DNA of 28,641 bases from Puniceicoccales bacterium (GCA_031278595.1 JAITKE010000017.1:1-28641); one strand, 5' to 3'. Shown: positions 58 to 26,036, counted from the stretch's first letter. Translations and numbers: made by a program. Notes: generated by a model from the sequence alone, not told the origin.

Positions 58-167
58 GGGGCCGCGTTTGCGTGGGGGGCTGGGACAGGGAACTTTCTCC
101 GCCCCCTCACGCGACGCCCGCGCCGCGGGCGCGGGCGCCTGGGCCCCTTGGGCCCAAAGGCGGCCCC
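58..167. repeat. Cloverleaf-type palindromic intergenic repeat
   Basis: Outer arms ggggccgcgtttg (58-70) and caaaggcggcccc (155-167) pair at 12/13. Inner hairpins: gcgtggggg...ccccctcacgc, cgcccgcgcc-gcg-ggcgcgggcg (115-137), tgggccc-ctt-gggccca. Confidence 0.75.
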
Positions 168-387
168 AAAATCTGGATTAAACAACGGCAGAAGTCATGG
201 CAGTTCTCTCGGAACTGTTGATTCAGGAATCCTTGAGGGTGTCGATTTCAACACACTGTGTCCGGTCTTTTCGCTGCAGTATATGAGTCTCCGAAGGGAT
301 ATTTTCCACGTCGTATGGCTGGATCGCGGCTTTACCCTATACGACCACGGGGCCTGACCTGCTCCGCTGCATCATTCCCCCTTCGCC

Positions 388-1152
388 TCACATATACCTC
401 CGCAAAAACCGGCGGGTGCGCTCGTCTTTGGGGGAGATGAAGATCTCGTCCTCGTCGGAGATCTCGATGATCCGGCCCTCTTCGATGTAGATGATGTAGT
501 CCGAGGCGTCGCGGGCGAAACGCATCTCGTGCGTGACGATGATCTGGGTCATGCCCTCGTGGTCCAGGTGGCGCATGACCTCCAACACCTCCTCCACCAT
601 GCCCGGATCCAGAGAGGAAGTCGGCTCGTCGTAGAGCATCACCTTCGGCTGCATGGCCAGGGCTCGGGCGATGGCAGCCCGCTGCTTCTGCCCACCGGAC
701 AGGCTCCAGGGGCGGCGGTGGGACAGACCGGACAGGCCGACCTTTTCCAGCAGCTCCATGGCTTTTTGCTTGGCGGCTTCGCGGGCTTCTTTTTTGACCA
801 CGAGGGGGGCCAGCATGATATTTTCCAGCAGCGTCTTGTTGGGGAAGAGGTTGAAGGATTGGAAGACCATGCCGACCTGTTGGCGCAGTGCGTGGGCCCG
901 GTCGAAGAAATGCGCGTCGAGGGCCGAGCTCCGGTCGGGCCGCGAGAGCGTGATGCCGTCGATGCGGATGCTACCGGCGTCGAGGATGTCGAGGCAGTTC
1001 AGGCAGCGCAGGAGCGTCGATTTCCCGCAGCCGGAGGGCCCGATGATCGAGACGAGATCGCCGGTCTCGATGGCAAAGCTGATGTCGTCGAGGATAAGGC
1101 TCTCGTCGTGGTATTTTTGAAGGTGCTGGACCGAGATCAGAGGCTCTGTCAT
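388..1152 (-). CDS. Polar amino-acid ABC transporter ATP-binding subunit (GlnQ-like)
   Basis: 254-aa ORF with Walker A GPSGCGKS, signature LSGGQ, Walker B/D-loop MLYDEPTSSLD and H-loop VTHEM. VGMVFQSFNLF is typical of the GlnQ/HisP family. Confidence 0.92.
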   Translation of the reverse strand: MTEPLISVQHLQKYHDESLILDDISFAIETGDLVSIIGPSGCGKSTLLRCLNCLDILDAGSIRIDGITLSRPDRSSALDAHFFDRAHALRQQVGMVFQSFNLFPNKTLLENIMLAPLVVKKEAREAAKQKAMELLEKVGLSGLSHRRPWSLSGGQKQRAAIARALAMQPKVMLYDEPTSSLDPGMVEEVLEVMRHLDHEGMTQIIVTHEMRFARDASDYIIYIEEGRIIEISDEDEIFISPKDERTRRFLRRYM

Positions 1153-1161
1153 GTCGGATAT

Positions 1162-1656
1162 CTAGAAACTTGAGGGGGAGTCCGGAGGGACGGGAACGCG
1201 GGAGGGCAAGAGCAGGAGAGCGCCGACGGCGAGGCAGATGGCGGTGTCGGCCAGGTTGAAGCTCGGCCAGCGGTAGAAGGGCAGGTGGATGTCGATGAAA
1301 TCCGTGACGCCGCCCTGGCGCAGTCGGTCGAGGACATTGCCCAAAATGCCACCGCTCAACAATCCGTAGGCGACGGGATGCACCTTAATTGTCTGGGCAT
1401 ACGACCAGAGAATTACGGCGGCGACCAGGAGGCCCAGGACGGCGAGTCCGCGGTTACAGCCCTGCCAGAGCCCCCAGGCTGCCCCGGTATTTTGGGTATG
1501 GCCGATGAAAAACCACTGGCCGAAGACCGCAAGGGGCTTCAGCTCCAACGCGCACGCGTGAGCCCGGACGCAGTGCTTGGTGATTCCATCGGCGCTGAGC
1601 ACGCCCACCAGGCTGAGGAGGAAAGGGAGAAGGGGGCGCTTCGAAAGACCGCTCAC
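1162..1656 (-). CDS. lspA: Lipoprotein signal peptidase (signal peptidase II)
   Basis: Motifs NTGAAWG, GGILGNVLDR, VTDFI and WPSFNLAD; hydrophobic segments; lies downstream of ileS as in the classical ileS-lspA linkage. Confidence 0.93.
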   Translation of the reverse strand: MSGLSKRPLLPFLLSLVGVLSADGITKHCVRAHACALELKPLAVFGQWFFIGHTQNTGAAWGLWQGCNRGLAVLGLLVAAVILWSYAQTIKVHPVAYGLLSGGILGNVLDRLRQGGVTDFIDIHLPFYRWPSFNLADTAICLAVGALLLLPSRVPVPPDSPSSF

Positions 1657-1659
1657 GTC

Positions 1660-2376
1660 CTAGACCTCGGCTTCCTCTTCCTCGTCGAAGAGGGCGGACT
1701 TATCCTCCAGGTTACCGGGGAAAATACTTTCGGCCACGTGGACGCGCTGCAGCTGGGCATCCTGCCGCTCCTTTTCGGCCTTGCCCTCCAGCGAGTAGCG
1801 CGTGAAAGGGATGGCGAGCAGGCGCTCCTCCGCAATCGGCTGACCGGTGATTTCGCAGCGGCCGTAGGTGCCCTCGAATAGGCGCCCGATGGCTCCGTCG
1901 ATTTCCTGCAGAACTTCCGCCTCGTCCTCCATCAGGCTGAGGGCGAAGTCCATGTCGAAGTCGTCGATGGGCGCGACGCTTTCGTGTCCCTGAAGCCTCT
2001 CCTTCAGAGCGACCAGACGCTCGTAGTGTTTCTTGAATGGCTCCGGAACTTCTCTCGCCTTTTTAGAAGAGAGCACTGAGTTCATCTGTGGGTCGAAGCC
2101 CAGGAGCTCGGCGATGCCAGCGGCGGCGACGACCTTGGCCCGTGCGGCCGGAGGGGCCTCGGGCAGGACGTTCACCGACACCTGGGGCCTAGAACGGCTC
2201 TCCTCACCGGTTTCCAACCGGAGCTGCTGCGCTTCGGCGATGGCGGCGCGCACATCTTCCATCGTGAAGACCAGCAAATCCCGATGGCTGCGGCGCTCCT
2301 GCACCTGCTTCCGCCGCCGAAGAATGCCGCTGACCGTGTCGTGATGAAGGTTTTTTTTCAGATGAGAGGTGACCAT
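1660..2376 (-). CDS. dksA: DksA/TraR-family transcription factor (divergent, single-Cys type)
   Basis: C-terminal DFALSL...EIDGAIGRLFEGTYGRCEITGQPIAEERLLAIPFTRYS matches the DksA/TraR globular domain; located between ileS and lspA. Confidence 0.8.
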   Translation of the reverse strand: MVTSHLKKNLHHDTVSGILRRRKQVQERRSHRDLLVFTMEDVRAAIAEAQQLRLETGEESRSRPQVSVNVLPEAPPAARAKVVAAAGIAELLGFDPQMNSVLSSKKAREVPEPFKKHYERLVALKERLQGHESVAPIDDFDMDFALSLMEDEAEVLQEIDGAIGRLFEGTYGRCEITGQPIAEERLLAIPFTRYSLEGKAEKERQDAQLQRVHVAESIFPGNLEDKSALFDEEEEAEV

Positions 2377-24648: not shown

Positions 24649-24735
24649 GCTGGCTTTCCAGGGCCCCAATGATAAAATCATTGGGGCCCTGGGGCCCGCA
24701 CAGCGGGCCCGATTTCTCCGAAATCGAAAGCCAGC
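24649..24735. repeat. Cloverleaf-type palindromic repeat (GCTGGCTTT subfamily)
   Basis: Outer gctggcttt / aaagccagc; perfect 16-bp arm ccagggccccaatgat-aaa-atcattggggccctgg; ggcccgc-aca-gcgggcc; cgatttc-tcc-gaaatcg. Confidence 0.88.
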
Positions 24736-24802
24736 CGGCATAGAAGTCTAGTCACTTGATAAATCTAGCCCCCTGATTTTAATTTTGGGGCTACCTTTGT
24801 AG

Positions 24803-24901
24803 TTTTGGGGCTGCCTTTGCGCCGAAGCCCCCGAAGGGGGCTTCGGCGGTGGCCCGCCTCCGGCGGGCCGCGTCCGTCGGAAGCCCAAGGCAGCCCCAAA
24901 A
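24803..24901. repeat. Cloverleaf-type palindromic repeat (GCCTTTG subfamily)
   Basis: Outer ttttggggctgcctt / aaggcagccccaaaa; inner cgccgaagccccc-gaa-gggggcttcggcg and ggcccgcc-tcc-ggcgggcc. The 5' arm is partly duplicated at 24783-24799. Confidence 0.88.
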
Positions 24902-25004
24902 CAACCCTTCGCTATTTTATCCTCTCCACCGGCCGGGGGCTCTTTCACTGCCGGCGATGACTTATGTCGACGAAGACCTTGTCCTTATGTCAATGGTGGC
25001 TTTT

Positions 25005-25865
25005 ATGCCGGCGGTGACTTTGTCCTTCCTGCTGGAACGGGCCGTGCGTTTTCTGCAGGGCCGAGGCGTGGGGTTTGCCCGGGCCGAGGCCGAACACCTG
25101 CTGACCCACGTCCTGGGCTGCCGGCGCTGCGAGCTCCCTCTGCGCCGAGGGGAAAGGGTCGAACGGGCACTGCTGACCGAATTCCTTCCTCTGCTGCGCC
25201 GTCGGGGCCGGCGCGAGCCGCTGGCGTATGTGCTGGGGGAATCTGATTTCCACGAACTTTCGCTGCGCTGTGACCGGCGGGCGCTGATCCCGCGACCCGA
25301 GACGGAGGAGCTGGTCGAATGGCTGCTGGGCCGATGGGAAAAAAATCCTCCGGCCCGGGTGCTGGACCTGGGGACCGGCAGCGGGGCCATCGGCCTCGCC
25401 CTGGCCCGGGCCTTTCCGAGGAGCTGCGTGATGGCCGTCGACCTCGATCCGGCCGCACTGGATTTGGCGAGGGAGAACGCGGAGAGAAATCGAGTGGACA
25501 ATATTCGCTTCGTCCGCTCGGATTGGTTCGAAAAAATCCAGGGCCGCTTCGACCTGATGGTGGCGAACCCGCCCTACCTGACGGCGGAGGAGCTGGAAAG
25601 CGCCGAACCGGAGGTGCGGGATTACGAGCCGAGAAAAGCGCTGGGCGCGGCCGAGGAGGGCCTGGCCGAGCTGCTCCGCATTTTGAGAAGCGCGAAGAAT
25701 TTCATGACCCCTTCGGCCTGGCTGGTGATGGAGATGGGTATCGCCCATGGGGAGGTGCTGAAGAGGGAAGCCGAGAGCTTAGGCTTTGGTTCGGTGCACA
25801 TTCGCCGCGACCTTTCGGGTCGACCGCGCTTTTTCCTGGCGAGCCAGGGGTTGCTGACGTTCTAG
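25005..25865 (+). CDS. prmC: Release-factor glutamine methyltransferase PrmC/HemK
   Basis: RREPLAYVLG, LIPRPETEELV, VLDLGTGSG and NPPY. The start is uncertain: in-frame ATGs at 24957, 24987, 24993 and 25005, with 25005 giving a typical length. Confidence 0.93.
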   Translation: MPAVTLSFLLERAVRFLQGRGVGFARAEAEHLLTHVLGCRRCELPLRRGERVERALLTEFLPLLRRRGRREPLAYVLGESDFHELSLRCDRRALIPRPETEELVEWLLGRWEKNPPARVLDLGTGSGAIGLALARAFPRSCVMAVDLDPAALDLARENAERNRVDNIRFVRSDWFEKIQGRFDLMVANPPYLTAEELESAEPEVRDYEPRKALGAAEEGLAELLRILRSAKNFMTPSAWLVMEMGIAHGEVLKREAESLGFGSVHIRRDLSGRPRFFLASQGLLTF

Positions 25866-26036
25866 AGGGCGCCGTCTTTACTGGTCTTGGTGGGGGCCGG
25901 CTTTGCCCGGAAGAGGAAAAGGCCTCCGGCCTTTTCCCCTCCGGGCGGCCCGCTCCGCGGGCCCGATGCCTCCGACATCGAAAGCCGGCCCCAAAAAACA
26001 CGGACCCTCCGGCAAACGCCCTTGACGAGACACCCT
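25866..26036. mobile_element. MITE (171 bp) with IS5-like ends and a CTAG target duplication, containing a cloverleaf
   Basis: CTAG at 25862-25865 and 26037-26040; ends AGGGCGCCGTC and (ttgac)GAGACACCCT resemble the 17917/19409 termini. Confidence 0.75.
25893..25992. repeat. Cloverleaf-type palindromic repeat (compensatory variant)
   Basis: Outer ggggccggcttt / aaagccggcccc; inner gcccgga..ggaaaaggcc / ggccttttcc..tccgggc, ggcccgc-tcc-gcgggcc and cgatg...catcg. Confidence 0.88.

Follow-up and report, generated by a model that had tools for sequence, protein, structure and literature searches.

Intergenic repeats with a shared cloverleaf fold in the genome of a Puniceicoccales bacterium

Two classes of small bacterial repeats are the closest described counterparts of the elements reported here. 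Repetitive extragenic palindromic (REP) sequences, bacterial interspersed mosaic elements (BIMEs) and REPINs, found with RAYT transposases in Enterobacteria and Pseudomonas, are high-copy, GC-rich, extragenic and lineage-specific palindromes; their number varies among close relatives, their pairing is kept by compensatory change, and folded single-stranded DNA is thought to be their active form (PMC3733652, PMC3116915). [quoted passage not shown] Features of both classes recur in a 28,641-nucleotide stretch of DNA (hereafter the window) that makes up the whole of contig C11 in a draft genome of a Puniceicoccales bacterium (G000; GCA_031278595.1, JAITKE010000017.1). Thirteen sites in this window fold into a cloverleaf, that is, a closing stem around three hairpins. 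The cloverleaf repeats resemble REPs, REPINs and MITEs in being non-autonomous, extragenic and structure-dependent, yet they do not qualify as members of either class.

The differences lie in both build and context. In a REP, one hairpin of 20-40 bp bears a GTAG or CGTC tag, whereas the cloverleaf is about 95 nt long, has four helices that meet at a four-way junction and carries no such tag; moreover, three of the four carrier drafts yielded no RAYT, and the repeats show no preference for gene 3' ends. CGTC-type REPs are likewise without a dedicated transposase (PMC3733652). As in a MITE, the ends of the cloverleaf form a perfect inverted repeat, namely the closing stem of 9-18 bp. However, no fixed target-site duplication, matching autonomous insertion sequence (IS) or shared transposase was found, and the interior consists of three independent perfect hairpins, in contrast to the one long imperfect hairpin of a MITE. 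To our knowledge, only RAYT-REPIN pairs have a known mobilising enzyme.

Minimum free-energy folding, with RNA as well as DNA parameters, gave the same architecture at 13/13 sites: an outer stem of 9-18 bp enclosing three hairpins, with 0-2 unpaired bases at the junctions and loops mostly of 3 nt. With DNA parameters the z-scores of the thirteen sites range from -5.8 to -13.9, and 0/200 dinucleotide shuffles folded equally well. The single architecture proposed in a preliminary description of the window is thus confirmed, and it extends to the site at 5351, which had been credited with only two clear inner arms but has three in the DNA fold. A strict structural descriptor (closing stem of >=9 bp, three arms of >=5 bp, gaps of <=4 nt) returned 187 cloverleaves from the 853-kb genome versus 0, 0 and 0 from three dinucleotide-shuffled genomes.

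The common shape does not correspond to a common sequence. A covariance model (R1), built from an alignment of eleven of the sites, matches exactly these eleven in the window (58, 5714, 8042, 12959, 16006, 21216, 22617, 22775, 24646, 24807 and 25893). They constitute family A, and the thirteen sites are therefore not the one family that had been described: the site at 12669 belongs to family B and the site at 5351 to family C. Family A is oriented, and sites 5714 and 22775 carry it on the minus strand. Its consensus in the eleven-site alignment is GGGGCYGSCTTTG - long variable arm - GGCCCGC nnn GCGGGCC - CGATTCC nnn GGAATCG - CAAAGSCRGCCCC, comprising a closing stem in which GGGGCYGSCTTTG pairs with CAAAGSCRGCCCC and which continues outwards, a long arm of free sequence, a middle arm (GCCCGC-nnn-GCGGGC) and a short arm (CGATTCC-nnn-GGAATCG). 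The T-runs before and A-runs after the stem, first remarked on for several copies, hold across 182 genome copies, in which the T-rich 5' and A-rich 3' flanks are mirror images of each other; beyond about 18 nt from the junction the flanks are no longer conserved. In families B, C and D the shape of family A recurs with unrelated sequence. Family B (unit 12662-12751) has about 26 copies at 93-100% identity in G000, which indicates a recent burst, and family C has about 9 copies in the genome by blastn and no R1 match. In family D the closing stem, GCGCGAYGGCC, is the sole conserved part, and the three inner arms vary yet pair perfectly (for instance at C20:8932-9050, C24:3870-3979, C88:11025-11124 and C41:146-257 of G000, among others). 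Family A accounts for 143/187 descriptor hits; the other 44 include families B, C and D and some divergent family-A copies.

Family A is abundant and restricted to one genus. An nhmmer search of G000 gave 222 matches, 203 of them full length, corresponding to about 1 per 4 kb and about 2.5% of the assembly, and nearly all copies are intergenic. The average unit is 95 nt, exactly three hairpins are present in 197/203 full-length copies (mean -80 kcal/mol), and arms 2 and 3 have triloops in 93-95% of cases. The genus comprises four species (G000 to G003), each with a genome of about 0.8-0.9 Mb; R1 has at least 150 matches in its own genome and at least about 95 sites in each of the four, and it has no match in 37 other families of the order nor in 150 further genomes of the phylum. 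Among the approximately 185 other Verrucomicrobiota genomes searched, family A is therefore confined to this genus. High copy number, extragenic position and lineage specificity (about 220 copies in 853 kb) bear out the initial comparison with REP/MITE-like dispersed repeats. The statement that the shape is not a named family also stands, as literature searches found no description of such a repeat family and cmscan against Rfam over the whole window at E<=1 matched none of the 13 sites (a tRNA-Gln was the sole above-threshold match). ARAGORN placed no tRNA-like gene at any of the 13 sites, and an Rfam or tRNA identity was consequently rejected for all of them.

The source fits a host-restricted termite-gut Verrucomicrobium of the order Puniceicoccales, and the public runs that contain the window sequence are termite-gut metagenomes only. 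Its isoleucyl/valyl-type tRNA synthetase shares 89% identity with the one in the Puniceicoccales MAG Roe453_bin126. All four genomes are drafts (69-93% complete). The G000 draft consists of 853 kb in 110 contigs at 59% G+C, and although 69% complete it exceeds the 784 kb of G003, which is 90% complete, and contains nearly double the copies, with 222 family-A copies versus 120. Family-A copies adjoin contig ends in 44/195 cases in G000, and the repeats thus fragment the assembly.

Two comparisons show that pairing is conserved beyond sequence. The first is a covariation alignment of 47 copies from the four species, in which 97% of cells pair versus 77% after shuffling and two-sided changes occur in 23/29 model pairs. 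The covariation score is 0.498, versus 0.135 in shuffles (0/500 reached the observed value) and at most 0.128 when the partners were slid. As this alignment was fitted to the structure, orthologous copies found through their flanks were also compared. Collinearity with locus L001 spans four genes only, and the whole G003 genome was therefore assembled again from loci (784 kb). Between G000 and G003, 40 orthologous copies provide 1656 base pairs, of which 1503 are unchanged; in 92 only one partner differs and in 61 both do, with Watson-Crick pairing restored in 54 of the latter. If changes were independent, 6.9 double changes would be expected, and the observed number is thus about 9-fold in excess. 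Additionally, the compensatory pairs reported earlier (ggctggcttt/aaagccagcc versus ggccggcttt/aaagccggcc, and ggggttgcc/ggcaacccc versus ggggctgcc/ggcagcccc) are present at 16003, 25893, 12955 and 24803.

Rates of change differ among the parts of the element. Between G000 and G003, stem sites overall differ at 6.5%, with 2.0% per site in the short arm (arm 3), 2.8% in the middle arm (arm 2), 5.1% in the closing stem and 10.9% in the long arm (45 single and 45 double changes). Unpaired bases differ at 39%, codon positions 1, 2 and 3 at 9.2%, 6.5% and 24%, and flanking spacer DNA at 27.5%. Stems thus evolve about 4 times more slowly than neutral sites, and loops evolve faster than neutral DNA. 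According to these rates, sequence is preserved at the junction and in both short arms, and the long arm preserves pairing only. Ascertainment bias is limited, because 58/63 flank-mapped G003 copies are still recognisable in G000. Taken together, the double changes, the covariation and the slow stems agree with the earlier proposal that selection acts on the fold.

The fold appears to be a property of the DNA. Relative to co-directional flanking genes, 39 copies have the same orientation and 35 the opposite, and the density is 0.96 copies per kb in tandem, 0.91 in convergent and 0.89 in divergent spacers; these counts are approximate, since genes were called with our own crude scorer of open reading frames (ORFs) and codon usage. 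Internal mismatches comprise 71 G.T and 62 A.C (31 versus 26 on the sense strand and 30 versus 19 on the antisense strand), whereas an RNA under selection is expected to tolerate G.U and not A.C. Most loops, closed by C-G, read GNA or the complementary TNC; the two forms are about equally frequent in every arm and in every combination, and exact loop flips are seen among orthologous copies. In contrast, the 5' half of the long arm stays purine-rich (1016 A-T versus 137 T-A pairs). Inversion is limited to the loops, which is the pattern that template switching or recombination within a DNA palindrome should produce. The lack of orientation bias, even density, mirrored flanks, equal G.T and A.C mismatches and flipping loops together point to a DNA-level structure on both strands. 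The preliminary description had offered either a four-way-junction RNA or a single-stranded DNA or cruciform; the latter option is favoured and the former is not.

Family A is therefore best read, with a probability of about 0.65, as a set of non-autonomous DNA repeats of the REP/MITE kind, defined by a nested-palindrome cloverleaf whose DNA-level fold would be recognised by a structure-specific protein. The fold would act in DNA, either within one strand of transiently single-stranded DNA or as a cruciform from supercoiled DNA, and either strand would form the cloverleaf equally well. The conserved junction, middle arm and short arm would form the recognition surface of a putative structure-specific protein that acts in trans to copy or integrate the element, while the long arm would need pairing only. 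Template switching or recombination inside each palindrome may account for the inverted loops and for some of the perfect pairing. The enzyme would not be a RAYT, IS110, TnpB or IS4/IS5-type DDE transposase common to the four carriers. Because copies do not decay in place, it is probable that they influence their surroundings locally or that one copy serves to correct another.

At least some of the differences between species are due to insertion. Of 112 G000 copies with flanks collinear in G003, 47 have a partner there and 65 do not, whereas among 63 flank-mapped G003 copies 58 have a counterpart in G000 and only 5 lack one. Therefore, either the G000 lineage gained many copies or G003 lost many. 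At C54:3122-3226 insertion is certain: the short-arm hairpin is intact in G003, and in G000 its loop holds a complete second cloverleaf. Another nested copy lies within the middle arm of an element on C94, and elements on C106 and C80 have non-palindromic inserts in their long-arm loops. In the window, a composite insertion of about 596 bp (approximately 12640-13235), made up of families A and B and MITE ends, is missing in G003, G001 and G002. It is also missing in a closer relative in run X2, where a contig joins 12635 to 13232 (insert 12636-13231). The contig-level DNA of the source study contained no empty site for a bare cloverleaf. Orphan 5' halves of the closing stem stand directly before a complete element in the window (Table 1) and at about 9180-9200 on C9 of G000, and these may be footprints of an insertion or replacement process.

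Several points weigh against the reading of family A as mobile REP/MITE-like repeats. No mobilising enzyme was found in the four carriers, although with drafts 69-93% complete this absence is not proven. From the filled and empty pairs of G000 and G003, neither a consistent target-site duplication nor a clean boundary emerged; spacer divergence is about 27%, and the insert frequently comes with extra bases. Inert selfish copies should decay and these do not, so a host role or copy-to-copy correction must be added. Gain and loss are polarised by outgroups for few sites only. Mutation, and not selection alone, could account for part of the slow change in stems and the fast change in loops, because paired bases are protected in single-stranded DNA and loop bases are exposed. 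Finally, the gene-context statistics depend on crude ORF-based calls.

Searches for a partner enzyme gave a largely negative picture. The Y1_Tnp domain (PF01797; RAYT/IS200) was not found in G000, G002 or G003, so the RAYT or other HUH gene suggested earlier as a neighbour of the elements did not turn up in three of the four genomes; G001 has eight degraded IS200/IS605-type Y1 transposase fragments (on C45, C55, C9, C11 and others) together with TnpB fragments, and TnpB was found in G001 only. IS110 was not found in any of the four genomes, and neither DDE_Tnp_1 nor DUF4143 ATPases were found in G003. RAYT, IS110, TnpB, IS4/IS5-type DDE transposases (DDE_Tnp_1) and DUF4143 ATPases were all rejected as partners, as none is present in all four carriers. 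Two tyrosine recombinases occur in each genome, except for three in G002; the single one examined is classed by its best score as XerC/XerD and falls far below the integron-integrase cut-off; a dedicated integrase was thus also set aside. Loss of the hairpin nuclease SbcCD was considered as a reason for the persistence of palindromes and discarded for want of correlation, since the SbcD_C domain is missing from the genus and also from 35/37 other genomes of the order.

RuvC is present in each of the four genomes, and the host junction-processing enzymes XerC/D and RuvC are the only candidates common to all four; their link to the repeats would be speculative. In an alternative that we regard as unlikely, the cloverleaf would be the substrate of an unrecognised form of DNA movement carried out by a junction-specific protein (possibly RuvC, XerC/D or similar Holliday-junction machinery of the host, or another enzyme), with no element-encoded transposase and with the arms produced and held perfect by fold-back templating. 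The presence of four or more unrelated sequence families with the cloverleaf shape in one genome counts towards it. RuvC prefers to cleave at (A/T)TT↓(G/C); the family-A junction, TTT↓G, resembles this preference, and families B and C are without the motif.

Similarly doubtful is the alternative that the cloverleaf is a domesticated element that now serves the host by nucleoid, gyrase or HU-type binding, as a supercoiling sink or as a barrier between transcription units, as proposed for REPs and BIMEs, with mobility reflecting its origin only. Conservation counts in its favour: stems evolve about 4 times more slowly than neutral DNA even in the unique long arms (10.9% versus 24-27%), 58/63 G003 copies are kept in G000, and three species with barely alignable spacers share the copy at 21216 at one and the same gene border. 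Small symbiont genomes normally lose useless DNA, and about 2.5% of such DNA persists in this reduced genome of about 0.9 Mb. However, sister species differ almost two-fold in copy number (222 versus 120), copies insert into each other, and the uniform density over spacer types reveals no positional rule with respect to genes. Additionally, four unrelated sequence families would each need domesticating, and no binding protein is known.

A functional structured RNA, be it a 3'-UTR (untranslated region) stabiliser, a bidirectional or "hairpin-cluster" terminator, or a four-way-junction small RNA, is improbable. The RNA fold has high stability, with a mean of about -80 kcal/mol, and many copies lie downstream of genes, convergent spacers included; hairpin clusters have already been proposed as terminators (PMC8355165). 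Yet the even orientation (39:35), the equal density in divergent spacers, the absence of a preference for G.U over A.C on the sense strand, the flipping of loops to their complement and the lack of an Rfam match all speak against an RNA function, and the median distance from the upstream stop codon to the element is 171 nt. No stem followed by a T-run was found: on either strand the T-run lies 5' of the stem and the A-run 3' of it, which is the reverse of an intrinsic terminator.

An IS5-type MITE is also present, and it proved to be a separate family that sometimes carries or adjoins cloverleaves, judging from the scarcity of its ends near family A and the short flank conservation. Its ends, AGGGTGTCGTCAAAT-like, inverted and mostly after CTAG, number 88 in the copy-rich G000, which also has an IS5-family transposase fragment at C100:7713-8087, and no such ends were found at <=2 mismatches in G003. 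In the window, stretches with these ends (25866-26036, 12643-12766 and 12905-13236) enclose the cloverleaves at 25893, 12669 and 12955. The first of these stretches, a 171-bp copy between two convergent genes, is precisely absent from G003, between CTAG copies. Many family-B copies also share MITE flanks. However, a MITE end lies within 150 nt of only 15/195 family-A copies and near 7/66 G000-only cloverleaves, G003 has 120 cloverleaves with neither such ends nor a DDE_Tnp_1 match, and nested copies are without such ends. As a general vehicle the IS5-type MITE was rejected, being real for few copies, and the IS5 transposase suggested earlier as a partner has terminal repeats that belong to this different family. 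It is therefore very improbable that the cloverleaf is the passenger or core of an ordinary MITE moved by an IS5-family transposase.

The individual copies in the window are listed in Table 1. At the 21216 copy, the stems are nearly identical among G000, G003 and G001 and the loops differ.

Table 1. Cloverleaf copies and related features in the window (positions from its first nucleotide).
Feature	Coordinates	Strand	Evidence
Family-A cloverleaf, irregular long arm	58..168	+	R1 61 bits; DNA fold z -5.8
Family-C cloverleaf, sequence unrelated to family A	5351..5460	.	fold z -10.6; blastn copies; no R1 match
Family-A copy, arm order reversed on the plus strand	5714..5809	-	R1 94 bits, minus strand; fold
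Family-A copy	8042..8146	+	R1 69 bits; fold z -9.9
Family-B cloverleaf, three short arms; one weak copy in sister species	12662..12751	.	fold z -9.1
Family-A copy within the composite insertion of about 596 bp	12954..13054	+	R1 79 bits; empty sites
Family-A copy; orthologous site in G003 filled	16002..16107	+	R1 94 bits; orthologue L123:18553-18649
Family-A copy; gene border shared by G000, G003 and G001	21216..21305	+	cross-species alignment
Family-A copy, close paralogue of the 21216 copy	22617..22704	+	R1 72 bits; fold
Family-A copy; orthologues in G003 and G002 with compensatory long-arm changes	22774..22882	-	R1; alignment
Family-A copy; G003 orthologue with a compensated long-arm pair and a different loop	24646..24739	+	R1; alignment
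Orphan partial 5' closing-stem half, directly upstream of the 24802 element	24783..24801	+	sequence reading
Family-A copy; no alignable G003 counterpart	24802..24902	+	R1 66 bits; alignment
Family-A copy inside the 171-bp IS5-type MITE (25866-26036), CTAG-flanked	25893..25993	+	R1 95 bits; G003 empty site

Some neighbouring regions of the window also differ between species or are unusual in composition. The ankyrin-repeat gene region at 14545-16001 and the region at 17916-19562 (with gene remnants at 18203-19496) have no alignable counterpart in G003, where the genes that flank them are nearly adjacent; both are species-specific islets bounded by cloverleaf copies. The DUF4143 ATPase gene at 21363-22181, which G003 lacks, has 85% DNA identity to its G001 counterpart and its neighbours have 74-76%, which suggests that it was recently exchanged or is mobile. 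A ComEC-type competence gene occupies 9343-11100, a region with strong negative GC and AT skew in which the ORF scorer chose an antisense ORF instead.

Looser parallels exist outside the REP and MITE classes. Double-hairpin elements of fungal mitochondria are short GC-rich palindromes that spread inside a small genome without an element-encoded enzyme. Mobile GC-cluster palindromes of yeast mitochondria (PMC4478555) are likewise short, GC-rich and defined by structure, and spread without an enzyme of their own. Both are organellar, have one or two hairpins and share no sequence with the cloverleaf, which is a closed three-arm junction, and the likeness is one of description. The terminal-repeat hairpins of parvoviruses, with their flip and flop forms, and the small inversions of chloroplast hairpins have loops in two complementary orientations on perfectly paired stems. 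However, in parvoviruses the hairpins form the replication-origin ends of linear genomes, and in chloroplasts they stand isolated, whereas in the cloverleaf three internal arms flip independently within chromosomal repeats, and this resemblance is an analogy only. Integron attC sites are single imperfect hairpins with extrahelical bases that are recombined by an integrase; such an identity was rejected by architecture, as the cloverleaf has three arms and a closing stem, and by the XerC/XerD type of the recombinase examined.

The spread of small palindromic repeats and their retention in bacteria have called for an explanation ever since the discovery of REPs. The cloverleaf repeats offer a system in which a sharply defined and elaborate DNA fold, without a RAYT, occurs in several sequence families and in the symbiont genomes of about 0.9 Mb of four species. 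They break assemblies and can be mistaken for structured RNAs. They also constitute a natural data set on how hairpin loops and stems change in vivo, and the frozen junction and short arms, set against a long arm conserved in structure only, provide a bait for the binding protein.

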